Under the pieces are notes generated by a model. That model saw only the letters and a list, made by a program, of their open reading frames with translations, was not told where the DNA came from and searched no databases. A stretch of DNA of 64,000 nt from IMG/VR virus record IMGVR_UViG_3300049432_000156, positions 1-64,000 of that record; one strand, given 5' to 3'. Positions 523 to 25,200 of this stretch are shown here, piece after piece (within the stretch, counting starts at the first letter, position 1; every line of letters starts with the position of its first letter). The position numbers and the translations under genes were made by a program. This DNA comes from a virus.

Positions 523-553
523 AGACAAAAACCACAAACAGAAAGGAACGCAA

Positions 554-961: not shown

Positions 962-964
962 ACT

Positions 965-1156: not shown

Positions 1157-1341
1157 GCTACATCTACGACCCTGATGATTTCAACGCCTTGTTCGACGCC
1201 GCGCCGAGGGAGCAACTGGCCGATCTCTTGCGCAAGCGCGGCATCTTCACGAATCCGGAATTACCGAAGGAAGACTTGCGCCCTCTGTTCGCGATGGGAT
1301 TCAGCTTCGAGGAATACAGGCAACTGAAAGGAACGACATGA
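1153..1341 (+). CDS. hypothetical protein
   Basis: Start/stop overlaps with both neighbours. Confidence 0.6.
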   Translation: MSYIYDPDDFNALFDAAPREQLADLLRKRGIFTNPELPKEDLRPLFAMGFSFEEYRQLKGTT

Positions 1342-1796: not shown

Positions 1797-2287
1797 AGCT
1801 CATTGAGTTAACGCGCGGCGAATACGCCATCGTGGATAATCGCGACTACGAAAGACTCAACCAATTCTTTTGGAGAGCGTGCCGTGACGAACGCGGCAAC
1901 ATAAAGAACGTCCAACGGCAAGTGATGTTCGAAGGTAAGAAGAAAGCAGTGCTGATGCACCATGAGATCATAGGTCATCCGCTTCCTGGTCTGGAAGTAG
2001 ATCACAAAAACAGGAACCCGCTGGATAATCGCAGGCGGAATCTTCGTTTCTGCACAAGCCAACTCAACAAGGCCAACAGTAAGAAGCGCAGCACAAACAC
2101 GAGCGGATTCAAAGGTGTGTCGTTCGCAAAGAAAGGTGTCACCAAACCGTGGATAGTTAGGATTCAAGTAGGCGCACGCATCATTAGTGGAGGCTGCTTC
2201 GCCACACGAGAAGATGCGGCTCGAAGATACGATCAGTTGGCTCGACAGTTTCATGGTTCGTTCGCATATCAAAACTTCCCGCAATGA
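1793..2287 (+). CDS. HNH-AP2 homing endonuclease
   Basis: VDHKNRNPLDNRRRNLR (HNH) plus SGFKGVS..W.VRI..G.F...DAARRYD (AP2). Confidence 0.92.
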   Translation: MKLIELTRGEYAIVDNRDYERLNQFFWRACRDERGNIKNVQRQVMFEGKKKAVLMHHEIIGHPLPGLEVDHKNRNPLDNRRRNLRFCTSQLNKANSKKRSTNTSGFKGVSFAKKGVTKPWIVRIQVGARIISGGCFATREDAARRYDQLARQFHGSFAYQNFPQ

Positions 2288-2580
2288 CAATCACAATAGA
2301 GACAGATGGGCGGGTATCATTTATTGGAAACCTTCCATTCGAGATGCCACTACTAGACCCGGTTAAAACACGGGTAAGCCGAATAGAGCCGGAGAGTCGG
2401 CGCAAGTGGATAGCATTCCGAAGTCTCCGAACTGTTTTCGGAGACAGGGGGCGCGCTGCCGATTGGACCAGAACTTGGGCCGGGCCGTGGATCGTGCGCA
2501 TCCTCGCCACCGGTCAGACTCAAACCTTCAACATCCGGGCCGAAGCGATTGCCTGGGAAATCGCAGTGCTGAACCTATGA
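2284..2580 (+). CDS. hypothetical protein
   Basis: ATGA-coupled 98 aa ORF. Confidence 0.65.
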   Translation: MTITIETDGRVSFIGNLPFEMPLLDPVKTRVSRIEPESRRKWIAFRSLRTVFGDRGRAADWTRTWAGPWIVRILATGQTQTFNIRAEAIAWEIAVLNL

Positions 2581-2734
2581 AAAGAAAGAGCGACCTTGCC
2601 TTGGACAAGAATCTTCTGCGCAGTCTTGACTTCATCATTCGGAACCCAGTGCTGGAAACTCCCGAAGACGTTCGCGCGCTCAAACGAATTCGCAACCGAC
2701 TAAAGAAGGCGAAGGCGATCAAGAAAATGACTTT

Positions 2735-3067
2735 GTGAGATTCATCGGCGACATCGATGGCGTCATTCTTGCCGAAGGCGAGGCCGGACAACTTATCCAA
2801 CATACCTTGCGGCAAGCACTCAGTGCGGCGGCGCATTACAAACGCCCAGTGCGTTTTGAAGGAAACGCCGAGACGTTCATCGCATACCCAAACGGTTCTT
2901 ACCGGAGAATCGAACGCGTGGACATCAACGAGCCTTACGGAATCGCGCCCTACGGAATCACGGGCGCGAACGATGAACGGCACGTTGCACCCATTGAAAT
3001 CCCGAAGTCGTTCAGCAAACCAAAGCGAACAATCCCTGTAAATGGAAAGCGCAAACTGATTCTTTGA
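2735..3067 (+). CDS. hypothetical protein
   Basis: GTGA-coupled ORF in operon. Confidence 0.6.
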   Translation: MRFIGDIDGVILAEGEAGQLIQHTLRQALSAAAHYKRPVRFEGNAETFIAYPNGSYRRIERVDINEPYGIAPYGITGANDERHVAPIEIPKSFSKPKRTIPVNGKRKLIL

Positions 3068-3076
3068 AAGGCGCGT

Positions 3077-3469
3077 ATGGCGATACCGCTCAAGAAACTG
3101 ATGGAAAGGAGACAAGTGAAAACAATTTGGAGAGCGTGGACGTTCGCTTCATCCAGCAGTGACTCGACTTATCAGACTTTGCTTTATGCGGACGGCTCGA
3201 CCTCGTGCGATTGCAAAGGGTGGACCAGGCGTGTTGCGGCTGACGGGACTCGGAGTTGCCGGCACACGCGGGCGGTTGACATGGGCCGGGCTGATGAAGA
3301 AGCGATGAGCGTTCACGGTTACGCGCCGATGGCAACCCTGCGATCGGATAAGATTTCCAGCACACCAACGAAACCACAAACCAGAAAGGACACCAGCCAT
3401 GCCCAGAAAACGAAACCAAGCGGAACCGGAAGCCCCACCGGGTACGGGAAGCGACGGATCATCCTCTAA
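3077..3469 (+). CDS. SWIM zinc-finger protein
   Basis: SCDCKGW...SCRH matches CxC-xn-CxH SWIM pattern. Confidence 0.75.
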   Translation: MAIPLKKLMERRQVKTIWRAWTFASSSSDSTYQTLLYADGSTSCDCKGWTRRVAADGTRSCRHTRAVDMGRADEEAMSVHGYAPMATLRSDKISSTPTKPQTRKDTSHAQKTKPSGTGSPTGYGKRRIIL

Positions 3470-5030
3470 CCAGCAACTCACCGCCTACATCAGGTCGGGC
3501 AAAGCAGGCATTTATGTGGTTTCTTACGAGGAGGTCAGAGTGGAGTCAGAATTCAGTAACATCGTCAGGCACCTGGACTCAATCAAGAAGCCCGACGATG
3601 CGGGGTTCGGTCTCTACACTTGGAGCTACACAGCCGGCATCGTCAACGTAACCGATGATCCGCCCACGTCCATTGCCGAGACCGAAGACCCGCTGGCCAT
3701 GCTCGACGCGTTCAACAAGTTGCCAGAACGATCGCTGCTAATCGCCAGAGATTTTCACGCGTTCCTGTCGGACCCGAATCCGAAGCTCGTCCGCATGGTG
3801 AAAGACGCGCTTGCCACAGGGAAGATGTCGAACCGGGTGTTCGTCATCTGCGGTTGTCTCCTGAAAATTCCGCCTGAGTTGGAAAAGGAAATGGCTGTCG
3901 TCGAGTTTAAGTTACCCGACCGCGCGCAACTCCGGGTCGTGCTCGAAGGCATCGCCGCCTCCGCCGGCATACCCATCAACGGCAACACCGATCCCATCCT
4001 GGACGCGGCTTCAGGCTGCACAACTTCGGAAGCGGAAGACGCGTTTGCCTTGTCGGTAGTCCAATGCGGCGACATCAGGGCGGAGATTGTGGCAAGGGAG
4101 AAGAGTGGTACGGTGAAGAAAAACGGGCTGCTCGAAATCGTGGACACCGACTTCAACATCGGAGACATCGGTGGTCTCGAAGTCCTCAAGTCATGGCTCA
4201 CGAAACGGCGGCTGGCGTTTTCCAATGAGGCCAAGGCATACGGGTTGCCGGTTCCCAAAGGGATTTTGGTGACGGGGATTCCGGGTGTCGGAAAAAGCCT
4301 GACGGCGAAAGCATCCGCGAAGATTCTCGGGGTGCCGTTGCTGAAGCTGGACGCTGGGAGAATCTTCGGCAGCCTGGTTGGAGATTCGGAAAAGAATATC
4401 CGCGCGGTGATTCAAACAGCAGAGGCGATTGCTCCATGTGTTTTAATGGTGGATGAAATTGAGAAATCGTTCAGCGGTTCCAAGTCCAGCGGGTCAACTG
4501 ATGGTGGAACTTCGGCGCGTGTTTTTGGAACATTTCTCTCGTGGTTGCAAGACAAAACTTCTCCCGTGTTCGTCTTCGCAACCGCGAACGACATCTCTCA
4601 ACTGCCGCCGGAATTCCTGCGTAAGGGGCGCTTCGATGATTTATGGTTTGCGGACTTGCCGGACACGGAGGAACGCGCTGCTATCTGGCGGCTGCACATC
4701 AACAAGCGCGGGCGCGACGCAGACAAGTTCAACCTGGAAATGCTGGCCGGCAGAACAGATGGATTCACCGGCGCCGAGATTGAAGCGATGGTCAATGAAT
4801 CGTTGTTCGCCTCATTCGAGGACGGACAGAGGGCACTGAATGATGACGACTTGTTGGAAGCGATACGAAACACGGTGCCGCTGTCCCGCACGATGACCCC
4901 GCAGATAGACGCGTTGCGGGCTTGGTCCGTTGGCCGTGCGCGCCGGGCGTCGGCGATCAAGGACACATCGAAGGGGCCCATGGAGAACAACGATCCACAT
5001 TCGATTGAGTGCGCGGCAGTGTTCCTGTGA
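3399..5030 (+). CDS. Ycf46-like AAA+ ATPase
   Basis: IGGLEVLKSWL, Walker A GIPGVGKS, Walker B MVDEIEK, ATAND..LPPEFLRKGRFD, TVPLSRTM. Confidence 0.9.
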   Translation: MPRKRNQAEPEAPPGTGSDGSSSNQQLTAYIRSGKAGIYVVSYEEVRVESEFSNIVRHLDSIKKPDDAGFGLYTWSYTAGIVNVTDDPPTSIAETEDPLAMLDAFNKLPERSLLIARDFHAFLSDPNPKLVRMVKDALATGKMSNRVFVICGCLLKIPPELEKEMAVVEFKLPDRAQLRVVLEGIAASAGIPINGNTDPILDAASGCTTSEAEDAFALSVVQCGDIRAEIVAREKSGTVKKNGLLEIVDTDFNIGDIGGLEVLKSWLTKRRLAFSNEAKAYGLPVPKGILVTGIPGVGKSLTAKASAKILGVPLLKLDAGRIFGSLVGDSEKNIRAVIQTAEAIAPCVLMVDEIEKSFSGSKSSGSTDGGTSARVFGTFLSWLQDKTSPVFVFATANDISQLPPEFLRKGRFDDLWFADLPDTEERAAIWRLHINKRGRDADKFNLEMLAGRTDGFTGAEIEAMVNESLFASFEDGQRALNDDDLLEAIRNTVPLSRTMTPQIDALRAWSVGRARRASAIKDTSKGPMENNDPHSIECAAVFL

Positions 5031-5117
5031 AGAAACCAATCGAACCGGTCTATCGCATGGTCGGACGGCATCGCGGCATCAGGTAATCGCGGAGTTCGTC
5101 GAGGAAGGAGCGAAGAC

Positions 5118-5399
5118 ATGACGAAGTTAACGAAACCCATCGAGCGCGAGACCAACAAACGTTACGGGAACCGTGCTGTCATCGTGACGTTGGCTCCGGC
5201 AGGTTCCCAGAATGAAGCGCTCATCGGACTCAGGCTCAAGGGGACAAGAACTACCTACGTCATCGCGCTGTCCGACGTGTATCGGTACGCCGCTTTGCAA
5301 TATGGCTACAAGGCATCCATCGCGAAACGAAAGGCGCGCAAAGATGGCATTCCCTGGCGGCAAGCGAAGAAGGATTTCATCAAGACCAATTTGATATGA
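5118..5399 (+). CDS. hypothetical basic protein
   Basis: SD GGAG upstream; LRLKGTRTTY motif. Confidence 0.7.
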   Translation: MTKLTKPIERETNKRYGNRAVIVTLAPAGSQNEALIGLRLKGTRTTYVIALSDVYRYAALQYGYKASIAKRKARKDGIPWRQAKKDFIKTNLI

Positions 5400-6304
5400 T
5401 GCGCGGTGTGATTCTAGCAGGCGGCACAGGCTCGCGATTGTTCCCCGCCACGGTTGCCACGTCGAAGCAACTTCTCTCAGTGGCAGGCAAGCCCATGCTT
5501 CTCCATCCACTCTGTACTCTCATGGAGGCTGGCATCCGCGAGGTCTGCGTCATCACCACGGGAGACGAGTCCGGAAGATTCTGCCAGCTTCTAGGCAATG
5601 GGACTCGGTGGGGCATGAAGATAGAGTATCGCGAACAAGATGAACCGCGAGGAATCGCCGATGCTTTCCTTATCGCGGCATCCTTCATCGCCAAAGAACC
5701 GATGGCGCTCATCTTGGGAGACAATCTTTTCCTTGGCGCTCGGGAAGCAATCGGTGATTACTCGGCGGAGCCTTGCTCTTTTCACGGCGCAGCCGCGTTC
5801 ATTACGCGCGTTGCCAACCCGGAACGGTATGGAGTCATCAGCTTCGACCGGCACGACCGGATCGCTGGCATCAAAGAGAAACCAGGGAGGCCAAAGAGTC
5901 GGTATGCAATCACCGGGCTTTACCTCTGCGCGCCGTCCGTGGTGGAGATCGCCCGCGGACTCAAGCCATCGAAGCGGGGCGAACTTGAGATCACGGATGT
6001 TCTTTCGGAATTCAACCGCCGAGGCCAACTGCGCGCGGTCAAGCTCCCGGCCGCCGCCGTGTGGATGGATTGTGGAACACCCACCGATCTAATGGAAGCC
6101 ACCAATCTGATTCACGCGATGGAAAAAAGAACCGGAGAAGTCATCGGATCGCCGGAGGTTGCAGCATGGAAACAGAAATGGATAAATGACGCTCAATTTG
6201 CGGAGTTAGTCCGCGCCATGCCACAATGTTTTTACCGACAACAACTGGAGGCACTATGCGAAAGAAAGAAAAACCAGAACCGAGCAAGTTCAAGCAAGCC
6301 TTGA
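5396..6304 (+). CDS. rfbA: glucose-1-phosphate thymidylyltransferase
   Basis: GVILAGGTGSRLFP..SKQLL, QDEPRGIADAF, LGDNLF, EKP..PKS, SKRGELEITD, WMDCGT. Confidence 0.92.
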   Translation: MMRGVILAGGTGSRLFPATVATSKQLLSVAGKPMLLHPLCTLMEAGIREVCVITTGDESGRFCQLLGNGTRWGMKIEYREQDEPRGIADAFLIAASFIAKEPMALILGDNLFLGAREAIGDYSAEPCSFHGAAAFITRVANPERYGVISFDRHDRIAGIKEKPGRPKSRYAITGLYLCAPSVVEIARGLKPSKRGELEITDVLSEFNRRGQLRAVKLPAAAVWMDCGTPTDLMEATNLIHAMEKRTGEVIGSPEVAAWKQKWINDAQFAELVRAMPQCFYRQQLEALCERKKNQNRASSSKP

Positions 6305-6464
6305 CCATCACGCTGGCAGCGGATGGTTGGGTTATGCCGGAATCCCATGCGCTCAACATCATGGATGAACACGTTCGCCGGCTAGAGCAGGAGATTGAAG
6401 TCCTTACCAAAGGACGTAGCGCCGGCCCGTCGAGGATCAATCCACTTGGAAGGCCGATACCATC

Positions 6465-6740
6465 ATGAACAAGCAACAACTCATCGCCACCGTTGCCGAA
6501 GAACAGCGTGAAAACCTGCCGCCAGATTGGGAGCTTCCGGTTCACCTGGACATGACGAGCTTGTTCGTCGTCATCGGCGGGCTGCAACTGGCCTTGCGCC
6601 ATCCGGAGTTCAGAAAGACTCCATCCGCCAAGTTGGTGCGGAAGATCATTGACCTGCTCATCTCAGGAATCCCGGACAACTGCCCGACCAGCAAAGAACT
6701 GGCAAGGCTTGGAGACAACCCGAAATACGACACCGCTTGA
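6465..6740 (+). CDS. hypothetical protein
   Basis: Coupled ORF with LQLALRHP motif. Confidence 0.65.
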   Translation: MNKQQLIATVAEEQRENLPPDWELPVHLDMTSLFVVIGGLQLALRHPEFRKTPSAKLVRKIIDLLISGIPDNCPTSKELARLGDNPKYDTA

Positions 6741-8628: not shown

Positions 8629-9015
8629 ATGAGCAAGCCGAAAGAAAACTCAGACATCACAGTACATTGCGAAACCTGCGGCACCAACTATCTGATTATG
8701 AAACTCGCGGGTCTCAGGGAAAAGATTCCCGACCTGGACCTGAAGACCAATCACTACAAGCACGGTCTCTGCAATGAGTGCGATGAACATCTGAAAGCCG
8801 GGGGCGTGTTCTTTCAGGATCGAGCCGGGCGATGTGTAAAGGTCGGACTTGAAGCAAGCCTGGAAAAAATATCACCGGGCTTTCGTGGCAAAGTCATCTG
8901 CATACCTTCGAAGGCCCTTGACGAACTCATCGCGGCGTGGATGGAGGCCAACCCGAATCCGCCGCCGTCGCCAGAATCCAATTCAGAGTTCGGAGATCAT
9001 CCGCCAAAGACCTAA
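8629..9015 (+). CDS. Cys-rich hypothetical protein
   Basis: CETC...CNEC pairs; TAA falls in the left core of the attC-like site at 9010. Confidence 0.7.
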   Translation: MSKPKENSDITVHCETCGTNYLIMKLAGLREKIPDLDLKTNHYKHGLCNECDEHLKAGGVFFQDRAGRCVKVGLEASLEKISPGFRGKVICIPSKALDELIAAWMEANPNPPPSPESNSEFGDHPPKT

Positions 9016-9099
9016 GACCGCGCTGGAGAGAACGCCGGGAAAGCGCTTCAGTCGTCGCCATCCGTTTTCTCCCCGGCGTCTCTCAGCTTGGATTTAGGT
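9010..9099 (+). repeat. attC-like site with mutated cores
   Basis: ACCTAAg-accgc-GCTGGAGA-gaacgccggg ... cccggcgtc-TCTCAGC-ttgga-tTTAGGT; AAC and GTT each carry one substitution. Confidence 0.7.
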
Positions 9100-9379
9100 G
9101 GATGAGCAACACGTCGATATGAAAACAGCAATTGTGATAATCGAGATACCTTACGGCAAAGACGATGCCATGAGGCACTGGCGGCAGCTTGCAGAGTTCT
9201 ACGCCGATAAAACAAAGTCCAAGCCAGGAATTGAAAGGCTTGCCGAAAATGTGTGGTTGATACCTCTTGATAGTGAATTGCCTCTGTTCGGCACTCTTGT
9301 ACACGGAGTGCGAGAGCATCACTTGAAATGCCGCACCCTGTTTCTTGATGAGAGTGCGCAATGGGTTTCATCCACCTAA
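9098..9379 (+). CDS. gene-cassette ORF, hypothetical
   Basis: Lies exactly between two attC-like sites; TAA is within ACCTAAC; start may be ATG 9119. Confidence 0.7.
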   Translation: MDEQHVDMKTAIVIIEIPYGKDDAMRHWRQLAEFYADKTKSKPGIERLAENVWLIPLDSELPLFGTLVHGVREHHLKCRTLFLDESAQWVSST

Positions 9380-9481
9380 CCAAGCGCTGGAGCCAACGCC
9401 GGGGAGTCACGCGAGTTGAGCCTTGGATTTTCTCTGGTCCAGCGCCAGCGTCCCGGCGTGGCTCAGCTTGGGTCGTTAGTT
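9374..9481 (+). repeat. attC-like site
   Basis: ACCTAAC-caagc-GCTGGAGC-caacgccggg ... cccggcgtg-GCTCAGC-ttgggtc-GTTAGTT; imperfect palindrome with extrahelical bases. Confidence 0.85.
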
Positions 9482-9960
9482 CTTTGTCTTTCATAGGCTT
9501 GCCTTTCCAATTGGGTTAACAGTTCAGAGATCGTAATATGACACCCGCCGGCTGAATTGACAATGGCCCAGTCTTTGGTGACGAGAACACGCGCAAGCTG
9601 GGCGTCATCATTCCATGCGCCGATCTTGGTCAGCGCATTTGCCACTGCCGCAGCCAGGTTGTCGAAGTCGGGTTTCTGTGTGTGATGGCTTGGAGCGGTT
9701 TCCTTGACCTTGCCGTTCGCCCTGAAGTGCGACTTCGGCCGCTTGAAATTGAACCGCAGTTCAAGGGAGATCGGGCCGTCGAACTTCTCAATTCCAGCTT
9801 CTTTGGCGGCTATCGCGATGGCCGACTTCCAACCTTCCGCCGTCGTCGGCGAGTACGCCCTCACCTGAATCTTATCTCCTTGTTTTAACGCGAACGCCCG
9901 CGGCCTGCCTTGCGCCTTTGGAGTTCCAGATACGAAAAAACTGATCGTTCTATTGGACAT
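9463..9960 (-). CDS. rusA: RusA-family Holliday junction resolvase
   Basis: GTPKAQGRPR...F.FKRPKSH...KPDFDNL...WNDDAQL; start set at ATG 9960. Confidence 0.85.
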   Translation of the reverse strand: MSNRTISFFVSGTPKAQGRPRAFALKQGDKIQVRAYSPTTAEGWKSAIAIAAKEAGIEKFDGPISLELRFNFKRPKSHFRANGKVKETAPSHHTQKPDFDNLAAAVANALTKIGAWNDDAQLARVLVTKDWAIVNSAGGCHITISELLTQLERQAYERQRTNDPS

Positions 9961-10043
9961 GCCGCCACCATCTTCTCCTGACAACATTGTGGGACGATAG
10001 CCAGCGCTGAATTTCCAAGCAATGAAAAAATCACAAAAAATGA

Positions 10044-10071
10044 TTGCATTGTTTTTGGTCCTCTGTATCGT
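10044..10071 (+). promoter_or_regulatory. putative sigma70-type promoter in divergent AT-rich spacer
   Basis: TTGCAT-16bp-TATCGT, 8 nt before ATG 10080. Confidence 0.45.
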
Positions 10072-10079
10072 GGCCGTGC

Positions 10080-10238
10080 ATGAGCGCAACTCAATCTGAA
10101 CGGACATGCCCGGTCAGAATATCCAGAGAACTCCATCAGCGGGCAAAGGCTTACGCCGCAAAACGCGGTTTGAAGATGCAAGCGCTGGCCGAACAAGCCT
10201 TCAAACTCCTGCTCGATGGCGCGAAGAAACCCCTATGA
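10080..10238 (+). CDS. ribbon-helix-helix (Arc/CopG-like) regulator
   Basis: PVRISRELHQRAKAYAAKRGLKMQALAEQA. Confidence 0.7.
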   Translation: MSATQSERTCPVRISRELHQRAKAYAAKRGLKMQALAEQAFKLLLDGAKKPL

Positions 10239-11479
10239 GTGAACCAACAAATCCGTTTGCCGTCGCCGCGAAACCAGCCGGGCCTGAGACGCTTCAGAGC
10301 CTTCTCGCCCAGGACAAATATCGAAAGCGTTTCGAGCAGGTGCTCGCCGACCGTGCGCCACAATTCATCAGCAGCATTCTCTCGCTGGGTGCCACGATGC
10401 CGGACGTTGAACCGCGAAGCATTCTCGCCAGCGCGGCCATCGCGGCATCTTTAGACCTCCCCGTGGATAAAAATCTTGGGTTCGCTTGGATCATTCCCTA
10501 TCGCAAGGGCGACAGGAAGTTCGCATCATTCCAGATGGGGGCGCGCGCCTACGTGCAGCTTGCCCTGCGCACTGCTCAGTACAAACGGATGAACGCGAAA
10601 CCGGTGAACGCCGAGGCGCTGAATGGGTACGACAACATTGGAGAGCCGGTGATTGATTGGAACAAGCTTGACGAAACAAAGGAACCGGTCGGGTATGTCT
10701 TTGCGTTCTCCCTCGTAAACGGTTTCACCAAGACATGCTACTGGTCGAAGTCCAAGGTCGAGGATCATGCCAGGAAATACTCGCAGGCGTATCGCGCAGG
10801 CTATGATTCGCCGTGGAAGACGCATTTTTCGGCTATGGCTTTGAAGACCGTCATCGCCAATGAGCTTCGGCACTGGGGTATTCTATCGGTAGAGATGCAG
10901 ATGGCATTTCGCGAGGACCTCGGAATGCACAAAGACATCGACACTGAAGTTGAATTTCCCGAGCCGGGAGACGAAATCATGCGACCGAAGTTTGATGACA
11001 AAATCGCCGACGCCGCGGACGCGAAGGCAACGGCCGACGAGAAGGCCGAAGCAGCGGCCGGTCTCGCCCCATCTTCACCGCCACCAGAACAACCCAGGCG
11101 CGGGCGAAAGAAAGCGGCAGCACCGGAGCCACCGGTTCAAGCCGCGCCCCAAGCGCCCGCGCCTGCTCCTGCTCCGGTTGCTCAGACGGGGCCAACAACC
11201 GCGACTCAGCCAAGCCCACCGAGCCAGCCAGCAGCCGGAGCCACGCAGCCGTCGTTCTCGGAGCTTTCCTTCCAACCGTACAACCAGTTGCGCGAGTTGA
11301 TGGATCACAGCAAGATCACGGAGCCGGAAATGATTCGCCTGTGCAGACACCGCGGCCTGATGACGGAGCAGCAGCAGGAGCTTCTGCAACTTGCGGACGA
11401 TAAGATCAAAGACCTCTGCGAAAGTTGGCCTGCAGTCGCTGGGCAGGTAAGGATTGATCGGAAGAGTTCGGGGAAATGA
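10235..11479 (+). CDS. recT: RecT-family ssDNA annealing protein
   Basis: AAIAASLDLP..NLGFAWIIPY, FQMG..YVQLALRT, SPWKTHFSAMALKTVI; Pro/Ala-rich linker and C-terminal extension. Confidence 0.9.
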   Translation: MSEPTNPFAVAAKPAGPETLQSLLAQDKYRKRFEQVLADRAPQFISSILSLGATMPDVEPRSILASAAIAASLDLPVDKNLGFAWIIPYRKGDRKFASFQMGARAYVQLALRTAQYKRMNAKPVNAEALNGYDNIGEPVIDWNKLDETKEPVGYVFAFSLVNGFTKTCYWSKSKVEDHARKYSQAYRAGYDSPWKTHFSAMALKTVIANELRHWGILSVEMQMAFREDLGMHKDIDTEVEFPEPGDEIMRPKFDDKIADAADAKATADEKAEAAAGLAPSSPPPEQPRRGRKKAAAPEPPVQAAPQAPAPAPAPVAQTGPTTATQPSPPSQPAAGATQPSFSELSFQPYNQLRELMDHSKITEPEMIRLCRHRGLMTEQQQELLQLADDKIKDLCESWPAVAGQVRIDRKSSGK

Positions 11480-11910: not shown

Positions 11911-11976
11911 GCGCCACTGACACCAGCTTTTCAGAAGTCGCCAAACGCGTTCAACTGCGAGGTGGTCTGTGATTTC

Positions 11977-12006
11977 GCCGAACGGCCAAGCAGCGCATGG
12001 TTCGGG
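11977..12006 (-). repeat. attC-like site A (internally deleted)
   Basis: + strand GCCGAACggccaag fused directly to cagcgcatgGTTCGGG. Confidence 0.6.
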
Positions 12007-12143
12007 AGAAGCCGACCCGCTGGTGTCGGAACTGCGAAGCCTCGCGACGACCGAATACCCGCTCTGCCCGGAAGCGAGACTGCTGCTTGAAATGGCCGTG
12101 GATGCTCAGCTTGGAAAACCCATAGACGTGACTCGGCTGCTCC

Positions 12144-12235
12144 CCAAGCTCAGCGACGGCAAAACCGAGACTCAACCATGCGAGAAAAAGTAAACCCAGA
12201 GCAGAAGCCGAGTTCGCCGGAGCGCTTGGTTAGGC
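12144..12235 (-). repeat. attC-like site B (left core deleted)
   Basis: ccaaGCTCAGCgacggc ... gccgagttcGCCGGAGC-gcttg-GTTAGGC; ATG 12178 in loop. Confidence 0.7.
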
Positions 12236-12470
12236 TGATATACTGCACTACACTGCTCCTCCTTGGCGTAGCGTCCATCAGCCATTCGATTGTGATATGG
12301 CGCTGGCAAAACAGGATCGTCACTTTAGAAACAGAAGTATCACTGCTGCGATCGCAGCTATCGACCCGACAATCAGGATCGCTATATCCACGCAGTGAAG
12401 GCGCTCAATTGATCTCTTCAAATCTCCTTGGCCATCTCGCCCCTATTGACTCTATTTTAAGCATGTGGAA

Positions 12471-12776
12471 TCAGGCTGACGTACCATGAACCGCGATCCT
12501 TCCTCTTTGCGTGATGCGATATTCAGTCGGGCGCGTCGCTGTCGCTTCGGCATGGCCAGACTGAAGAAGACGCTCCAACAAAAAGTCAGCGCGCTATACC
12601 GATACTCCGACCGTCTGTGCTATCGCTTCTGGAAGTACCCAATCCCGCGCCGTGTCCAACGCCTTTATGACATGGCGTGCCTCTACGGACAATTGCTCCC
12701 CTATTACCTCGCGGTATTGCTGGAGGAGTTCATCATACTTCTGACGGAGGGAATCGAAGTCTTCATTTGGGTTCAT
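12471..12776 (-). pseudogene. winged-helix protein interrupted by in-frame TAG at 12594-12596
   Basis: Manual translation through the stop: EAIAQTVGVSV*RADFLLERLLQSGHAE...YRITQRGR. Confidence 0.6.
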
Positions 12777-12811
12777 AATAGGCGAGTGAACGATTGGCGT
12801 CGCGATAGTCA

Positions 12812-12919
12812 GCCTAACGACCAAGCTCAGGAGCGGCGGGAAGGAAAACTATGAACGAGCAAGAGACTCAAGGCACAACCTCAACCGGCTCCCCGCCGTC
12901 GCCCAGCGCAGTGTTCGGC
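12812..12919 (-). repeat. attC-like site C
   Basis: GCCTAAC-gaccaa-GCTCAGG-agcggcggg ... cccgccgtcgcccagc-gcagt-GTTCGGC; AAGGA and ATG 12851 in loop. Confidence 0.8.
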
Positions 12920-13066
12920 GGCGGACGTTGCTGGCGAAACTTTTTGGCAGCATAACCGACCCGCGATACGCGGTACTAGTGCGCGTGAATCCGAGGCGGC
13001 GACTCGATCCGTGATGAGAGACGAAAGGGTTATGCTGCCGTTTGAATCTGTGGACAAGAACGAGCC

Positions 13067-13148
13067 GCCGAACGACCAAGCAAACCTGAAACCTTATGGC
13101 AAATAAACAAAACGCAAAAGCCGGGTTCGCTGGAGCGCCTGGTTCTGC
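13067..13148 (-). repeat. attC-like site D (left arm shortened)
   Basis: GCCGAAC-gaccaa-gc ... gggttc-GCTGGAGC-gcctg-GTTCTGC; ATG 13096 in loop. Confidence 0.75.
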
Positions 13149-13353
13149 GGCGTGCCCCGACTTCTGGTTTCGATACGAGAGGGTGGACGGCGAGGAAGTG
13201 ATAAACACATCGCGCAATCTGCTCTATGAACAGGTGATGGAAATCATGGCTGGGATTGATCGCGTGAAAGCGACGATCACCGCTGGTGACAAATGGCACT
13301 GCCCGAACTGCGACAAGCCGCATAACGACAAAGCTCAGCGACCGGCCAACTGA
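13096..13353 (+). CDS. cassette ORF, hypothetical
   Basis: Starts in site D, stops in site E; HCPNC motif. Confidence 0.55.
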   Translation: MANKQNAKAGFAGAPGSAACPDFWFRYERVDGEEVINTSRNLLYEQVMEIMAGIDRVKATITAGDKWHCPNCDKPHNDKAQRPAN

Positions 13354-13423
13354 TATGAGCCAACCCGCGAGCAACGGCACGACTGAAACGACAATCCCGG
13401 TTGGCTCCAGTGAGTTGTTAGAG
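13320..13423 (-). repeat. attC-like site E
   Basis: GCATAAC-gacaaa-GCTCAGC-gaccgg ... ccggttg-GCTCCAGT-gagtt-GTTAGAG; ATG 13355 in loop. Confidence 0.8.
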
Positions 13424-13609
13424 GCGCTTCGGCGATGGCGCTACTTTGAAAAGAGACACGCAGCAGTGGTGCTTGGTGAAATCGACATCGACGCACAGCA
13501 GGCGAAAGAAGTATCTGACCGTGCGTTGCATCAACTGCGGATTGTGGCGGATAGGGCAATCACGCAAGCCTCTAACGACAAGCTCACCGACCGCCCACCG
13601 CGACAATGA
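13355..13609 (+). CDS. cassette ORF, hypothetical helical protein
   Basis: Starts in site E, stops in site F overlapping the next ATG. Confidence 0.6.
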   Translation: MSQPASNGTTETTIPVGSSELLEALRRWRYFEKRHAAVVLGEIDIDAQQAKEVSDRALHQLRIVADRAITQASNDKLTDRPPRQ

Positions 13610-13672
13610 AAAACACTGACTCCAAGTCCAACCCGAAAGCGAATGGCGGTTCGGTGCAGCGCATGGTTGGGC
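13570..13672 (-). repeat. attC-like site F
   Basis: CTCTAAC-gacaa-GCTCACC-gaccgcc ... ggcggttc-GGTGCAGC-gcatg-GTTGGGC; ATG 13606 in loop. Confidence 0.88.
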
Positions 13673-13821
13673 TGCGACGGTGCTCTTGCGGTCTCCGTCC
13701 AAAACTCACGCGATGGGAGGGCGGCGTAGAAATCGAATGCAGACTTGGCATGGACGAAGGATGCGGAGACTACATTAATGAAGCGACTGAGGCTCAAGCC
13801 CGAGCCGCATGGAACCAGTAA
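13606..13821 (+). CDS. cassette ORF, Lar-like (restriction alleviation) zinc finger
   Basis: LRRCSCG..P....IEC....GC.....EAQARAAWN resembles the Lar family pattern. Confidence 0.6.
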   Translation: MKNTDSKSNPKANGGSVQRMVGLRRCSCGLRPKLTRWEGGVEIECRLGMDEGCGDYINEATEAQARAAWNQ

Positions 13822-13825
13822 GTGA

Positions 13826-13912
13826 GCCCAACGACAAAGCTCAGCGACCGGGACGCTGAGTAAAGTATTAACCCCGCGGCGAATCCCGGTTCGCTGCAGC
13901 GATTGGTTAGGT
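13826..13912 (-). repeat. attC-like site G
   Basis: GCCCAAC-gacaaa-GCTCAGC-gaccggga ... tcccggttc-GCTGCAGC-gattg-GTTAGGT. Confidence 0.9.
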
Positions 13913-13932
13913 AAAAGTAACCCAAAACCACA

Positions 13933-14148
13933 ATGAAAAAAACGACCATAACTCAGGCCCAAGAGGACGCCGTATATGCAATCGGCACCAAATCTCGCGT
14001 CAACCTGCACGAAATCCACCCGCGCGTTGCTCGTGCTTTGATAAAAAAAAGACTGATCGAAAAACAATGGAACTCGAACGATGCAAGCGGAGAAAAGCTG
14101 AAGCTGACGGACAATGGCAGATCGGCGTTCAAACAGCTTTTTACCTAA
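13933..14148 (+). CDS. cassette ORF, small winged-helix-like protein
   Basis: HPRVARALIKKRLIE...LKLTDNGR; TAA within ACCTAAC core; AT-richer than flanks. Confidence 0.65.
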   Translation: MKKTTITQAQEDAVYAIGTKSRVNLHEIHPRVARALIKKRLIEKQWNSNDASGEKLKLTDNGRSAFKQLFT

Positions 14149-14161
14149 CAGTACTTTAGAC
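14143..14161 (-). promoter_or_regulatory. attI-like simple site
   Basis: Minus strand GTCTAAA-gtact-GTTAGGT; same 7-5-7 spacing as attI1 (CCCTAAA-acaaa-GTTRRRY); no palindromic arm beyond it. Confidence 0.6.
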
Positions 14162-14183
14162 GACTCTTGAAAGGTAACGTTAA

Positions 14184-14477
14184 ATGACTCGCAAGCACTC
14201 AGCCAACGCACTGGCGGCAAAACAACGCAATCGGTTGGCCTCACCACCACCTGATTACTTCGACGCGCCGGATTACTCCAAGCCCGTGCGCGAGATCGTT
14301 TACCGCGACCTGCTGAGCGGCGAGACGCACATATTCCTGTTGTTCATCCATCCGCGCCGGGTCGATCAATTTGTTTGCCTCATCGACGGCAAGCCGTGGC
14401 TGGCCCAAGCCGGTTGGAGCCGCGTTTTAGCTGGACTCCGCAAGGCTGTGCCACGCTTCTCACAACGACCTCAATGA
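14184..14477 (+). CDS. hypothetical protein
   Basis: 97 aa, coupled to next gene. Confidence 0.65.
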   Translation: MTRKHSANALAAKQRNRLASPPPDYFDAPDYSKPVREIVYRDLLSGETHIFLLFIHPRRVDQFVCLIDGKPWLAQAGWSRVLAGLRKAVPRFSQRPQ

Positions 14478-14731
14478 ACGACGCTCTGTTCAGACCGTCC
14501 TCGATGCTCCGCCGGTCAAAGTGTCCGGGGAGCTTGGCGCTTGAATCCACGTTGCCGGAGAGCGTGGATGACGAGAGCGACGAATACCGAGCAGAAGGTC
14601 GCCTGCTACACGCGCTCATTGCAGACCCGTCTCTGCCGAGAGATGAACTAAAGCCGAGCCAGATGGATTTAATCGAAACCATCGAGAAGGAGGAACGGAA
14701 TTTTCTCGAATCTAATCTATTCACCGTCTGA
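14474..14731 (+). CDS. N-terminal part of DUF2800/Cas4-like PD-(D/E)XK nuclease
   Basis: RPSSMLRRSKCPGS...AEGRLLH. Confidence 0.7.
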   Translation: MNDALFRPSSMLRRSKCPGSLALESTLPESVDDESDEYRAEGRLLHALIADPSLPRDELKPSQMDLIETIEKEERNFLESNLFTV

Positions 14732-15618
14732 TGAAAGATTACATCGAACTGGTGGAGGAAGCGTTCTCATTCAGTTGGGATGGCAAGGTGTTGTTCACCG
14801 GGCATCCAGACAGTGTGCTTGTGTTCCGCCTTGGTAATCCAGTCATCGTGCGTGAACGGAAGATGGGGTTCAAAGTGGTCCAAGCTGCTGACGCAAACCT
14901 ACAGCTTCGTGCGTATATCGCGATGGTATCCGAAAAATATCAAGCGAGCGATTACTACGGCCAGCTCACCCAGCCGAGAGTTTCATCGAAGTCACACATT
15001 GTTTATTATACGCGAGAGGATGTCGCCAAAGCCCGCCTTGAAATAAAGGCTTTATGGGACGCAAGCCACGCGCCAGATGCGCCGCGCCGGGCATCGCACG
15101 ACGCCTGCAACTTCTGCCGGGCGCAGACCGTGTGCCCCGAATTTCAGTCTTGGCTCGGTGCCATCGAGAAATCAAAGCACCTGCCGGTCGCTCAATGGAC
15201 GGACGGCCAGATGAGTCTGTTTGAGGAACGGCGTGGAATGTTGGAGAAATTCCTCAAGGAGACCCACAAGCAGATCTTCGCGATTAAACAGGCTGACCCG
15301 GAGAGATTGCCGGGGTGGAGTATAAAGCCCGGAGCTAACGTCCGAAGAGTCAACGACCTTGTCGCCGCCTGGTCGGCATTGCAGAGTTTGCTGTCCGACG
15401 GTTTTGGCAACGAAGCCGCGAAGCAATTCAGCAATTGCTGTGACATCTCAATCGGGGCATTGGAAGATTTGATTTACAACATGCTCAAGGATGCGGCAAA
15501 AAAAAAGAGCCAGAAAGAAGTCAAACGACTGGTCAACGATGCCCTGTCCGGGCTAATTGAACTGCGACAGAACAAGCCATCATTGGTCAAAGATGAGCGA
15601 ACAGCACCAAACCGTTAA
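14731..15618 (+). CDS. C-terminal part of DUF2800/Cas4-like PD-(D/E)XK nuclease
   Basis: GHPD..ERKMG..NLQLRAY..QPR..CNFCRAQTVC..LPGW. Confidence 0.75.
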   Translation: MKDYIELVEEAFSFSWDGKVLFTGHPDSVLVFRLGNPVIVRERKMGFKVVQAADANLQLRAYIAMVSEKYQASDYYGQLTQPRVSSKSHIVYYTREDVAKARLEIKALWDASHAPDAPRRASHDACNFCRAQTVCPEFQSWLGAIEKSKHLPVAQWTDGQMSLFEERRGMLEKFLKETHKQIFAIKQADPERLPGWSIKPGANVRRVNDLVAAWSALQSLLSDGFGNEAAKQFSNCCDISIGALEDLIYNMLKDAAKKKSQKEVKRLVNDALSGLIELRQNKPSLVKDERTAPNR

Positions 15619-15775: not shown

Positions 15776-16126
15776 ATGAGCTTGGTTAAAAAGCTAGATG
15801 CCATCCCGCCCTGCCTCGTGCGTTTGATCGCCAGAGACCCACGGCATCCAGGCCGCCGGCTGCCGCTCTTGGCCATTGCCGAACGCGCCGGCTTGTCCTA
15901 TGGAGCCACGAGGCGCCTGTCGCTGAAACGCTCGTGGGGCAATGTCACACCAAGGATCATTGATTCCTTCTGTAGCGCGTGCGGCGTCGACATTCTGCAT
16001 CCGAAAAGCTCCGTTGATTATCTCAAAAGAACTCTGAGGAAACCAAACGGCTACAAACTGCTGGCCAACAAATCCGGTTCTGGATCGGCCGAGTCGGTGC
16101 TAAGATTATTGCAGACACTCCAATGA
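15776..16126 (+). CDS. HTH DNA-binding protein
   Basis: LLAIAERAGLSYGATRRLS...IDSFCSACGVD, XRE-like. Confidence 0.55.
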   Translation: MSLVKKLDAIPPCLVRLIARDPRHPGRRLPLLAIAERAGLSYGATRRLSLKRSWGNVTPRIIDSFCSACGVDILHPKSSVDYLKRTLRKPNGYKLLANKSGSGSAESVLRLLQTLQ

Positions 16127-17103
16127 ATGACGAAAACAAAGCCCTGGAACAGAACCCCGTCCTCAAGCCGACGGTTGCCATATGGGTCGAGGAGTACAAG
16201 GCGCAGAATTTTCCAAGATTCGCGCAGAACACTCGAACCTTAGTGAACACTGAACTTGTCCGGTTTGCGCTATTCCTTGGACGCCGAGCAATCTCCGGGA
16301 ACATCCTGCACGAGTACATGGCCGAACAACGTCGCAGGGTTGCAGGCGAATCGCTGATCAGGGCGATGCGATGGACTGGCGCATTCCTGAAGTGGGCCGA
16401 GGAAATGGGCTACCTGGACAGGCGCTACTCGTCGCTGTCGATCTTCAAATGCAGTGCGGTCCTGGTCATTCACAAACCGCCGCAGCGCTTCACGCCCGAA
16501 CAGTACGAAGCGATGAAGGAAGCGACCAAGGGCACCGGATGGCACTATGCCACGATCATGGCGTATCGCACCGGCGCACGGTTGAGCGATGCGTGTCTGC
16601 TGAAATGGGAGAGCGTAAACCTGGAAGAGCTTTACATTCATTACCTGCCGTGGAAAACCAGGAAGTCGCAGCGGTATGCGACCTGCCCCTTTCAGGCTGG
16701 TGGGGATTTCCACAATGTACTCATTGAGCTAAACGCATCACGGGACAAGCGCCCGCACTGGGACCAGTTCGTCTGCCCGGAACTCGCGATGAGATACGCG
16801 ACGCAATCAGACGTGTTCCAGAGCTATGAGCTGAGTCGTCAGTTCGGAGGCTACTGCAAAAAAATCGGCGCTGCGCACCTGAGCTTCCATAAACTGCGTA
16901 ACACGTTCATGGCGAAATGCGTTGACGGCTCAATCCCGTTCGCACAGGCGCGTCAGATTACGGGGCTTGGTAGCGACAGCGTGTTCATGCGATATGCGAA
17001 ACCGAATCTGGATGTTCTCAGAGTCGCAATCGACAAAATTGATTCGCAAGACTTGCCTAAAGGAACGTCGATTATTCAGTTGCCGCAAAATTCGGCAGCT
17101 TGA
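16123..17103 (+). CDS. tyrosine recombinase
   Basis: TGARLSD (R), PWKT (K), FHKLRNTF (HxxR), MRYA (Y); second His appears as Leu (ITGL). Confidence 0.85.
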   Translation: MNDENKALEQNPVLKPTVAIWVEEYKAQNFPRFAQNTRTLVNTELVRFALFLGRRAISGNILHEYMAEQRRRVAGESLIRAMRWTGAFLKWAEEMGYLDRRYSSLSIFKCSAVLVIHKPPQRFTPEQYEAMKEATKGTGWHYATIMAYRTGARLSDACLLKWESVNLEELYIHYLPWKTRKSQRYATCPFQAGGDFHNVLIELNASRDKRPHWDQFVCPELAMRYATQSDVFQSYELSRQFGGYCKKIGAAHLSFHKLRNTFMAKCVDGSIPFAQARQITGLGSDSVFMRYAKPNLDVLRVAIDKIDSQDLPKGTSIIQLPQNSAA

Positions 17104-21899: not shown

Positions 21900-22201
21900 A
21901 ACCACTCGCAACAACAAAAACCGCCGCCACTGTAATGTGCCGTCCGCAATTCAGGATCGACTGCGTTGGCGAGGAAGGCCCTCATTCTGATATGGAGAAA
22001 TATGGATGGGTGCCAAGTGGGGATGACATGCTTTATCTCACAGTGAAAACCTGTGTGAATACATGGCATTGCATGGTGCCAAGAGCCGCTATGAACGCCG
22101 TGTTCGAGGCGATCAACAAAAACGGTGTCACGATTGAATTTTGCGGTTCAGATAGCCGTCAATCTCCCATGCCGCTAGACCGCCAGCCTCCGCAGCCGTG
22201 A
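21896..22201 (+). CDS. hypothetical protein
   Basis: Last + gene, converges on the giant gene. Confidence 0.5.
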   Translation: MKPLATTKTAATVMCRPQFRIDCVGEEGPHSDMEKYGWVPSGDDMLYLTVKTCVNTWHCMVPRAAMNAVFEAINKNGVTIEFCGSDSRQSPMPLDRQPPQP

Positions 22202-25200
22202 CTGTCTCGGCCTTCTTGACGCGCCCCTGAGCAAGCTACGAGTTCTCAGCCCACGCCGCAGTGACCTTGATCTGAACCCGGAGCGCACGCCGCGCGGAGA
22301 GCCAAGAGAGAGTCGGCTGCGCGAACCGCCGAATCCTCCGATGTCGGAAAAAGCGCCTGAGCTTTCGGATGGCACCGCGCCGAAGCCGCGTCCGCCGCCG
22401 AAGCTCCGGGCTGTAGCGCCGCCTCCACCCGTGCCGTAACGGCTGGCAATCTGGTTGAAGACAGCGTTGGCCTCATTCTGCCGTCCGAGCGCTTCAGGAG
22501 TCATACGTGAGTAAATCATTTCGCGTTCGCCGTCCGTCAGCACACGGGAGAACACGGCGGACTCTGGTGCCCGCGTCCGGATAGCGGAGATGATTGCCTG
22601 CTCAGGGTTCGGATTGCCCGACGCACGACTCTGCTCAACGGCTTTGGCAAAGGCTTCGTCCGCCGTGGACCAATCTCCGACTGCCGCCGCATTCAGAATC
22701 GTGTTGTAGAGCGGAGTCATGGGCGTGACGCGCAGATCATTGCCTGACGAAGGCTGCCTTCTCTTGGCTTCCAAACTCTCCGGCGTATTGGCGCGAAGCT
22801 CATTGGCGGCGTTGCGCATCTTGACCAAACCCTCGCGTGATGGCGCCCGGTTGATGAGCGCCCGCGCCACGGGCGAGTAACGCGCCAGGAAATCCACGGC
22901 TGGCCCGGCATCACGGCTCTGGTAAATCTTAGCCATTGTTTGAAGGAGGTCCGTGACGTAGTTCGCGCCGAAGATCGGATTGCGCAGACCGAGTTTACCT
23001 GGTGTATCCTTGAACCCTTTGAAGATGCTGCCCGCCGCACCCCAGAAGTTCGCCGCAACAGAGAGCAGAATCTTCCAGCGATCATCGTCATTGTCCGCGT
23101 CCAGGAAATCCGGTTGCGATGAGATCGTGTTGAACAACGCGTCATTCGCACGCTGCCCGGGAATCCTCGCAACCAACCCGGCTATGCCCGATGCGATCAG
23201 GAAGCCGAACACAAACGGCAGATAACGCACGTCACTGCCTTTCTGGCCGCGGACCTTGGCGAACAATTCCTGCAACTTGTCCGTGTTCCAAAGAAACCAT
23301 TGGCCGAGCACACCGCCAATCTGCCGTTCTTTGCTGCCCATGAAATACGTCGGCCTGCTCGTCGGCGTGCCCATGTTCGTGTCTTCGGCCATTTTGAACT
23401 GCAACGCATACCGCTGCGCCGGGGTCATAATCGGCGCTGTGCGGTTCCCGTTGGGATGCGTCTTGTTCCACCAATACTTCAGCATGATCAGGTCAACCGG
23501 ATCGTTGTTTTCCAGGAACATGTTGCGAAGCTGGACAGCGGCTTTGCGCATCGTCAGTCCGACGATGATTGGGTCTTTGCCCGTCAATTCGGCAGGTGAC
23601 AGGAGTTCACCCTTGCCATCCGGCCCGATCAAAACACCGGAGAACCGTTTGTAGTTGTCGCCGTATTCCCGATAGAGCCTTGCGAACTCCGGATCGTTCT
23701 CAAGCCGGCTGTCGAATGCGCGCATCGCCCGGACTTCCAAAGACCTTCCAAGGCTTTGCTCCTTGGCGATGGATTTGACATTGATCCAGTTATCGACGGA
23801 GCGCATGAAGCCATGCCGCAGTAAGACTTGTCCGGCGCGCGGGATCATCCCGATGTAACCGAACGCTTCCTTGCTCCCGCTCAGACTTGGGTCGGCGTGA
23901 ATGTCACGGAACGCGGCCATTGCCGCTTTGAAGTTTTCCGCCAGCGTCCATTCCGCATTGGTGCCCATCGCTTCCCGGTAAGAGAACCGGTCGATCATGC
24001 CCATCCTGGCCTGTTGCTCTCGGTCGGCAGCTTCCTGAGCCATGCCGGATACGATCTCCGTTGCCGCTTCTCTCAGGTCGCGATTGTCCAACAGCCGTTT
24101 GACGGCGTTGGTCTTCATTGCACGCAGAGCTTTAGCGCCCGGGCGAAGACTGACAGGTTCGCCTTTCCACTTCAGATACGGCACTTTCAATTCCGCCAGA
24201 GCAGCAGTTTTTATGGCCGTGCGCACCCAATCTTTTACGAGATGGCCTGTCACCCACAACCAGCCGCCTTTGCGGATCTCCGCCGTCTTCAATGCCCACA
24301 TGAACTCGCCTGAAACGCCGTTCGTGATCAAAGTCATCGGTGCCAGGAGCACGTTGCTGACGGCGAAATTCCACCACGGCATGAACATCCGTGACGCGAT
24401 GTCATCACCGAAGAATCCCTCGCCGCGTTTTGCGATGTCGGTGACGTTGTTTAACAACCTGCCAATGCGGGCGATGTCCCGGTTCACCTCCCAGATCGCC
24501 ATCTGATGTTTCTGCACGGACTCGTTTCCGGAGACGATGGCTGCGTTCAGCTTGCGCCGGGCCTGCCAGCCGGTGCCACCGTAAGCGTCCTTCAACGTCT
24601 TGGACAACGCGGTCTTCTCCGCGAGTAACGCAGTGTTCAACGACCGCAGGCTGTCGCGGTACTTGATGACGTAGAATTCTAGGGCATTGGCGCCTTTGCG
24701 GAAGGCATCAACCGGGTCGGTTGTTCCGTACCGGTACAACGTGCCAGGAGCAATCTTTCCGCCGCGCGGCTGGGTGAATTCGTTCTCATGCACGGTGATG
24801 TCCACATTGGCCGCGGTCGCTTTCCTTGCGTTATCATCCGAGACCTTCAGCATGAACTCGTTCACTTCATCAATCAGCTTTCGTCGGACTTCGCCAGCAG
24901 TTGCCGGTGGCAGTGGCGGGTCAGAGCCTGCGATTCGCTGGTTATACCGATCTGCAATGAACTGCGCTAACTCATCCAGGCTGGCCGGCATCCGGCCCTC
25001 TCTGAACAAAATCTCGCGTTCGTTCCGTATCCGTTTGTAATCCTCAGCGAATTTGCCTTGGCCAAGCTGGAAATAAGGGCGCTCGTCTTCAAGGACGTGC
25101 CCGAGCACGACGCGTTTGTACCGGTCCCCGGCGCTGAGGAATTGGTCGATCTGATTATTCTCCCGGGCGCTCTTCCACAACGCCGGCAGTTCACGGCTGC

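Follow-up and report, generated by a model that had tools for sequence, protein, structure and literature searches.

Candidate translation-coupling junctions inside the attC loops of a cassette array in a soil phage

The IMG/VR virus record IMGVR_UViG_3300049432_000156 is a linear sequence of 77,365 bp from a soil metagenome, about 73% complete; the window analysed here is its initial 64,000 nucleotides, to whose positions all coordinates refer. The window encodes a large terminase and a virion protein. In its early region, in the interval between the genes of RecT (10106-11479, plus strand) and of a Cas4-like PD-(D/E)XK nuclease (14731-15618, plus strand) and immediately 3' of the former, lies a region of small genes with seven plus-strand repeats at 11977-13914. 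These repeats end in RYYYAAC...GTTRRRY, have arms able to pair and, by all the sequence tests applied, are attC sites, the recombination sites of integron cassettes. With seven of them inside 2 kb, two more on the other phage arm and no integron integrase (IntI), the stretch qualifies on its sequence as a CALIN (cluster of attC sites lacking integron integrases). The subject of this report is the position of the start and stop codons of the small genes, several of which fall in the loops of these sites.

A covariance model built on six of the window copies recovered all window copies, two minus-strand copies and arrays in other viral contigs. Site A (11977-12008; 16.5 bits, a weak score) is a stub that keeps both cores (GCCGAAC and GTTCGGG) and the arm ends without the loop, and it falls within the initial codons of the open reading frame (ORF) at 11969-12193. 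Site B (12135-12237; 82.8 bits) has lost its left core, about 7 nt being gone, and has a loop ATG at 12178, 17 nt past the left arm. The loop ATG of site C (12812-12921; 83.6 bits) lies at 12851 after AAGGA, and that of site D (13067-13150; 65.5 bits), whose left arm is degenerate, at 13096. Site E (13320-13424; 92.8 bits), with its loop ATG at 13355, forms a poor hairpin with a fold z of about 0. The two arms of E are of differing subtypes, GCTCAGC on the left and CTCCAGTG on the right, and the site barely folds; it could be chimeric or plainly decayed. Site F (13570-13674; 88.8 bits) is intact, with a DNA fold of -17.8 kcal/mol, a loop ATG at 13606 within an ATGA and an additional in-frame ATG at 13663 adjoining the GTT core. 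Site G (13826-13914; 88.7 bits) has the best fold (z -3.0 to -3.2) and no ATG in its loop, the gene start at 13933 being 27 nt past the core. When folding was compared with that of shuffled sequence, only F and G did better, and C, D and E were poor.

A lone left core, TTACCTAAC, at 14141-14149 on the plus strand closes the last unit. It complements the right core of site G at 9/9 positions and includes the TAA stop of ORF 13933-14148. This core may be an insertion point, either attI-like or a secondary site, and the end of the array at 14141-14149 is where new cassettes would enter; in a check for attI at this entry end, the lone core was all that was found, with nothing else pointing to attI.

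With 18 long genes of the window as its training set, a codon model gave the plus-strand ORFs 11969-12193, 12486-12854, 13011-13106, 13096-13353, 13355-13609, 13606-13821 and 13933-14148 a coding posterior of 0.99-1.0 and classed all minus-strand ORFs of the array region as antisense. The first of these, 11969-12193 (74 amino acids, posterior 1.0), has its Shine-Dalgarno sequence GAGGTGG and its GTG start in the phage backbone 5' of stub A, enters the array with an AAC codon and reads through the stub into site B. There it stops 16 nt beyond ATG 12178, from which an ORF of 103 amino acids (12178-12489) with an ambiguous posterior of 0.46 begins. ORF 12486-12854 (122 amino acids, posterior 0.995) takes its tail, NDQAQERREGKL, from the left arm and loop of site C. 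The frame opened by the site C loop ATG (12851-12955, 34 amino acids, posterior 0.02) is probably a non-gene or a decayed gene, and the coding-like frame 13011-13106 (31 amino acids, posterior 0.99), which enters site D with an AAC codon and stops 11 nt beyond ATG 13096, is possibly what remains of the gene of the C-D unit. ORF 13096-13353 (85 amino acids, posterior 1.0), with two CxxC-like pairs, starts in the site D loop and stops in that of site E; ORF 13355-13609 (84 amino acids, posterior 1.0) starts in the site E loop and stops at the ATGA in the site F loop, where ORF 13606-13821, coding for a small zinc-finger protein of 71 amino acids, begins. The last unit holds ORF 13933-14148 (71 amino acids), with its start in the cassette body and its stop in the terminal core.

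The body of the 229-bp C-D unit (12922-13066) has no intact gene and contains a perfect 12-bp inverted repeat (12946-12957/13028-13039); this body folds no better than shuffled sequence (z -1.4).

Reading the sequence confirmed every coordinate of the preliminary description, which had placed the start codons 12178, 12851, 13096, 13355 and 13606 between the arms of sites B to F and had noted that upstream ORFs end at the next start, through ATGA at 12851-12854, TGA-T-ATG at 13351-13357 and ATGA at 13606-13609. At sites D and B the overlap is 11 and 16 nt, respectively, so that the stop overlaps or abuts the start at each of these junctions, and four of the five connect two plausible genes, site C being the exception. 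The protein ends that the same description attributed to the sites (NDQAQ, NDKAQ and NDKLTD at C-termini; PERLVR, GAPGS and VQRMVG near N-termini) do come from the repeat arms, whose reading frame differs from site to site, so that what is conserved is DNA and not protein.

In order to compare phage with host arrays, we counted as a coupled junction any loop ATG that coincides with an upstream stop, provided that the ORF it opens and the one ending there each have at least 40 amino acids; the phage set comprised 33 sites in other contigs and the bacterial set 150 sites of the same repeat family. A loop ATG opened an ORF of at least 40 amino acids past the core in 4/8 window sites and 21/33 sites of other phages, against 16/150 bacterial sites read on the same strand and 4/150 on the top strand. 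Coupled junctions were found at 4/8 sites in the window and 12/33 in other phages (seven of them exact ATGA), against 6/150 and 0/150 in bacteria on the same and the top strand, respectively. For other phages versus bacteria on the same strand, Fisher's test gave 7e-10 for the loop-ATG ORFs and 1.6e-6 for the coupled junctions; in the plus-strand array of the window four of the six full sites are coupled, which has a binomial probability of about 4e-5 at a rate of 4%. The enrichment of ATG/stop overlaps in phage over host arrays, which had been put forward as a test of the idea, was therefore strongly positive. In addition, upstream ORFs enter the left core with an AAC codon at 16/23 sites of other phages and 6/7 sites of the window, and in 18/25 sites the frame so defined stops at most a few bases away from the loop ATG, while the other two phases do so in 11/25 and 0/25.

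A few loop ATGs with ATGA and small cysteine-rich bottom-strand ORFs were seen in four contigs from bacterial metagenome-assembled genomes (L022, L043, L075 and L026); these sites may belong to prophages or represent phage-type cassettes within host arrays.

Proteins of related phages point to the loop ATGs as the true starts. Seven further viral contigs and two metagenome loci have the layout too, and the Pfam domains of the sister-phage proteins (a C5 DNA methylase, an N6/N4 methylase, a PAPS reductase, a helix-turn-helix protein and a weak Lar match) lie on the strand modelled here and begin 3-8 residues past the GTT core. The C5 DNA methylase has a leader of 18 residues, with profile position 4 at residue 27, and the PAPS-reductase-like protein one of 15 residues, with profile position 3 at residue 21. 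With the domains beginning so close to the core, and for lack of any other start codon, the start must be inside the attC. The window offers a similar case in ORF 13606-13821, which has no in-frame ATG, GTG or TTG from the core to the first cysteines. A word-based protein search with this ORF returned only itself, and a full HMMER search found relatives; in all of them the leader frame is open, and two (L205 and L207) have an upstream attC with an in-frame ATG on the 5' side of the loop, which in L205 forms an ATGA overlap with a different upstream gene.

ORF 13606-13821 had no Pfam match to the Lar family (PF14354) even at E = 10, and it is weakly similar to a cassette protein of a related contig (L011) that itself matches Lar only at E 1.2e-3, below the cut-off. 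Searches of viral contigs with ORF 13096-13353, with ORF 12486-12854 and with the zinc-finger alignment found no relatives, nor did tblastx and blastn match the window cassette bodies to any of the loci collected.

One viral contig (L005; IMGVR_UViG_3300017707_001413, 1-6585) carries a complete integron, with an IntI scoring 274.9 bits to TIGR02249. Its intI begins about 40 nt past the last cassette ORF and is co-directional with the bottom-strand cassette genes, among which C5 and N6/N4 DNA methyltransferases start in attC loops, each with an ATGA overlap.

The assignment of the repeats to attC draws on their structure and on their distribution. Inverse cores RYYYAAC/GTTRRRY are present in sites C, D, E, F and G and in stub A, with the left one deleted in B. 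In the alignment 78% of the cells are paired, against 26-40% with slid partners, five pairs have changed on both sides, and the arm subtypes covary clearly across a 41-site phage alignment. The cores that flank one cassette are complementary at 5.2 of 6 variable positions, versus 2.6 of 6 for the cores within one site (27 adjacent pairs); the pairs of the window show 9/9, 9/9, 8/9, 9/9 and 8/9, as well as the 9/9 of the terminal core. Such complementarity between flanking cores is the signature of cassettes with a circular intermediate. On the attC bottom strand, extrahelical bases are known from the arm facing AAC, near positions 16 and 23/24 and separated by a 6-bp stem (Nivina 2016, PMC5027507). 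One-base bulges occur on the 3' arm of the modelled strand at positions 16/17 in 24/36 phage and 118/146 bacterial sites, and at 23/24 from the 3' end in 28/36 and 129/146, the extrahelical base being mostly C instead of the usual G at the former and T at the latter. The spacers of site G measure 6 and 5 nt, and the loops of the phage sites 10-83 nt.

The left-arm motif was found in at least 120 bacterial contigs, mainly of Verrucomicrobiota and Planctomycetota, in which arrays of this family reach 13 or more sites, and four of five tested genomes carrying the family have an integron integrase over the TIGR02249 cut-off. Arrays stand beside an IntI above that cut-off in three bacterial contigs (L055, L037 and L077) and in the viral contig L005; this is not so on the window contig. 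Rfam, at gathering and at lax thresholds, gave nothing relevant to the repeats, and the right-arm 15-mer had 60 viral matches with true sites in only three contigs.

One further contig classified as viral (L195; IMGVR_UViG_3300046522_000744) contains eight very uniform, GC-rich sites of 126-132 nt without loop ATGs. It resembles a chromosomal array of host type and may be the flank of a provirus or a misclassified contig.

Which strand of the attC is read as the coding strand decides what a unit is. Four independent lines identify the phage plus strand as the attC bottom strand. The bulges are positioned opposite the AAC arm; the modelled strand is directed to the 5' end of intI in L055, L037, L077 and L005; in bacterial cassettes the longest open frame is on the opposite strand in 60/78; and a duplicated Planctomycetota unit, 99% identical, spans from the AAC in one left core to that in the next left core, the right-hand site being unrelated. 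Apart from that one 99% identical pair, comparison of the sites that flank homologous bodies had a mixed outcome. A reading of the plus strand as the attC top strand, taken from the match between right and left cores, was considered and dropped because this signature is identical on either strand. Cleavage of the attC bottom strand within AAC is established (PMC5027507). As the plus strand is the bottom strand and would be cut in AAC, a unit on the plus strand would consist of the attC, then the gene, up to the next RYYYAA, with the crossover placed at RYYYAA|C of the left core. The end of the array fits units of this kind, for unit G and its gene are followed by the lone core TTACCTAAC; the canonical layout, in which a gene on the attC top strand is followed by its attC, is not what the genes at 11.9-14.2 kb present.

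Taken together, these data lead us to propose that the locus is a CALIN in a phage whose attC-first, bottom-strand units begin their genes at loop ATGs coupled to the stops of the upstream genes, a reading to which we assign a probability of about 0.65. The median distance of the loop ATG is 13 nt from the left arm and 41 nt from the right arm, and translation would begin at this codon, near the 5' side of the loop, and continue across the right arm and GTT core, so that 15-20 N-terminal residues would be encoded by the attC. Reading would often cross the next crossover point into the left arm with an AAC codon and end at or beside the next loop ATG. As RNA the sites fold with a median of -37 kcal/mol, with the ATG within an extended stem at some of them. 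The arms could thus pair into a strong hairpin in the mRNA, whose left arm the ribosome of the upstream gene would melt before halting at the TGA of the ATGA and restarting on the downstream gene. Most loop ATGs have no Shine-Dalgarno sequence, and a few situated deeper in the loop do have one (site C, L007:8985 and L005:5234). Termination followed by reinitiation is the probable mechanism.

Several observations weigh against this proposal, and most of them bear on the view that the array is a fossil compacted in place, in which cassettes acquired long ago have ceased to recombine and selection for dense gene packing has moved starts and stops into the loops, the sole sequence left free, so that the junctions function but nothing is portable or reshuffled. 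Sites A to E are decayed, A being a stub, B coreless on the left and C, D and E degraded to the point of folding like shuffled sequence; the older end is probably no longer mobile, and no IntI is present on the contig. The junction at site C opens no real gene. Overlapping stops and starts are a habit of the whole phage, as 31 of 81 coding ORFs outside the arrays have one, 19 of them ATGA; it is the place of the junction inside a recombination site that is unusual, the overlap itself being ordinary. Furthermore, gene bodies that are 93-95% identical in amino acids have unrelated loop-coded leaders, so that the leader is not visibly travelling with the gene; this would imply either very fast evolution of the loop or replacement of the attC independently of the gene. 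The preference for one phase is also seen in the top-strand ORFs of bacteria (39/61) and may in part be a property of the site family. Yet the layout repeats, with unrelated genes and well-folding sites, in the seven viral contigs and two metagenome loci, and L005 has an IntI of its own. Adjustment case by case would need neither the preferred AAC-codon frame (22/30) nor the fit of the in-site stop (18/25). We consider compaction in place unlikely.

The second set of objections concerns the place of initiation. In-frame NTG codons adjoin the core in four sites (TTG in B and E, GTG in C, ATG 13663 in F), an ATG lies inside the core of L207, and shorter products could arise from such starts; begun at ATG 13663, the zinc-finger ORF 13606-13821 would have a short N-terminus of a more usual kind. 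Unit G and a sister provirus (L003) start in the cassette body, where an SD-like (Shine-Dalgarno-like) sequence is used instead. On these grounds the loop ATGs could be incidental, with initiation at the core or in the body and untranslated leaders. This we regard as improbable, for loop ATGs that open a downstream ORF are six times commoner than in bacterial sites, they coincide with the upstream stop, exactly as ATGA in 7 of the 12 coupled sites of other phages, their placement just past the left arm is consistent, and the leader stays open in every relative of ORF 13606-13821.

That the repeats are a phage-specific intergenic hairpin, serving in RNA processing, termination or as a recombination linker through which modules are exchanged, is very improbable: they match no Rfam family, are co-oriented with transcription on both divergent phage arms and lie next to RecT, but arrays of the family adjoin true IntI in bacteria and in L005, the geometry of core, bulge and spacer fits published attC rules, and duplicated units end at AAC triplets. 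Hardly more credible is the notion that the genuine cassette genes lie on the minus strand and the plus-strand ORFs are shadows in GC-rich DNA; long minus frames do exist (for example 13531-14250, 239 amino acids), bacterial cassettes of the family use that strand and the unit 9098-9379 in the left arm of the phage is of the usual kind, but codon usage places every minus frame at 11.9-14.3 kb in the antisense class with the plus ORFs as coding, the sister-phage Pfam domains are on the modelled strand, and RecT and the nuclease, which flank the array, are encoded by the plus strand.

Having preferred attC-first units with coupled loop starts, we can ask how far they are portable. The preliminary description held that each excised unit carries its own start signal, so that a reshuffled array stays translatable. 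The first part stands, and it does so only because the plus strand is the attC bottom strand; with the top strand it would fail. The interpretation as a whole is weakened by the decay of A to E, by the junction at C, by the overlaps seen all over the phage and by the unrelated leaders of related bodies. These particular units may be mobile, and the layout may survive reshuffling and leave the array translatable. That phages of Verrucomicrobiota and Planctomycetota hosts keep attC-first cassettes of their own, whose genes end in a standard phase with AAC as a codon over the crossover and whose every order recreates the overlap of stop and start, is a possibility that we put forward tentatively, with the odds somewhat against it. 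In general, what the preliminary description observed is confirmed, and its interpretation appears partly supported, largely through the comparative evidence.

Arrays of this kind are not new in themselves. Clusters of attC and integrons have been reported in phages, and IntI1 recombines phage attC sites (Qi et al. 2023, PMC9892861); as in that work, the window has an attC array with small cassettes and no intI near, and DNA methyltransferases are among the phage cassettes there, as in L005. Its section 3.4 is silent on the attC strand used, on starts internal to attC and on stop/start overlaps in loops, and differs from the present case, in which the genes are on the attC bottom strand and loop-initiated. 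Our literature search turned up neither start codons placed in attC loops nor bottom-strand cassette genes in phages.

With the canonical integron cassette the window shares the architecture of the recombination site, the complementarity of flanking cores and a site family of host chromosomes. Host cassettes of this family have the ORF on the top strand (60/78), where a loop ATG opens the next ORF in only 4/150 sites; in the canonical order an ORF is followed by its attC and read from Pc, whereas in the window the gene follows the attC and starts inside it, the arms being translated as protein ends. The closest known parallel in integrons is ORF-11/ORF-18 of attI1, a short frame across the recombination point that takes its stop from the neighbouring cassette and whose coupling drives translation of a cassette without its own initiation region (Hanau-Bercot 2002, reviewed in PMC8876359). 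As described there, it lies in attI, serves the first cassette only and is a separate leader peptide. In the window, unlike ORF-11/ORF-18, the attC carries the gene's own start, and coupling is to the cassette gene before it. The fusion of backbone and cassette in ORF 11969-12193 recalls the ORF-11 fusions of attI.

Two other systems show partial likeness. Hairpins of attC reportedly hinder translation of downstream cassettes (Jacquier et al. 2009); here too the attC is predicted to fold in the mRNA and meet ribosomes, but the window frames cross both arms, so that upstream translation would open the hairpin. T4-type phages are said to contain promoter-stem-loop (PeSL) cassettes (Arbiol et al. 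2010), which resemble the present array in that repeated structured elements surround small genes of a variable early region, and which are reported to shuffle these genes. PeSL elements depend on homologous recombination and carry promoters, whereas those of the window are integron attC with AAC/GTT cores and start codons.

Around the array, the left arm of the phage contains a minus-strand gene for RusA (9463-10107) and two minus-strand attC of the same family, at 9372-9481 (43.9 bits) and 9008-9099 (24.3 bits). This mini-array (9008-9481) is co-oriented with the local genes on the opposite phage arm, and RusA stops inside the site at 9372-9481. Between the two sites lies ORF 9098-9379 (plus strand, 93 amino acids), coding by codon usage and antisense to the RusA operon; the unit is, by its layout, an ordinary top-strand cassette. 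On the other side, the DUF2800/Cas4-like nuclease seems to be split, with profile positions 2-43 in ORF 14375-14731 and 104-363 in ORF 14731-15618, the two linked through an ATGA overlap; the relative L011 has matching nuclease pieces in unchanged order. A tyrosine recombinase gene (16123-17103, plus strand) follows 2 kb downstream of the array. Its product, with 43 bits to PF00589, is the sole tyrosine recombinase of the record and does not match TIGR02249, so that no integron integrase, and hence no intI in cis as in a complete integron, is present in this record, itself about 73% complete. We found no solved-structure relative of this recombinase, nor did it resemble the recombinases of the sister phages. 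At 22175-33184 a single ORF of 3,669 amino acids runs on the minus strand. A search of sequencing runs for the stretch returned a single DNA run, probably the source soil metagenome, and no RNA run among those holding it.

Integron cassettes are usually seen as a promoterless gene followed by an untranslated hairpin that, if anything, hampers the next gene. Here the hairpin would be part of the genes, contributing the start codon together with 15-20 residues at the N-terminus and, often, 9-12 at the C-terminus, as well as the proposed point at which ribosomes are handed over. If this is confirmed, attC sequence would be constrained by coding besides folding, gene callers and integron finders would misjudge the cassette proteins of such arrays, and phages would be using cassettes oriented opposite to those of their hosts. 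The array represents a testable system for the expression of promoterless cassettes without Shine-Dalgarno sequences deep in arrays, and for the use by phages of the host cassette pool, for instance of DNA methyltransferases as accessory genes. Should phages indeed keep attC-first cassettes of their own, attC would be under a triple constraint, combining recombination structure with N-terminal and C-terminal coding, and the integron machinery would act as a builder of translationally coupled operons of small accessory genes, such as methyltransferases and Lar-like proteins.

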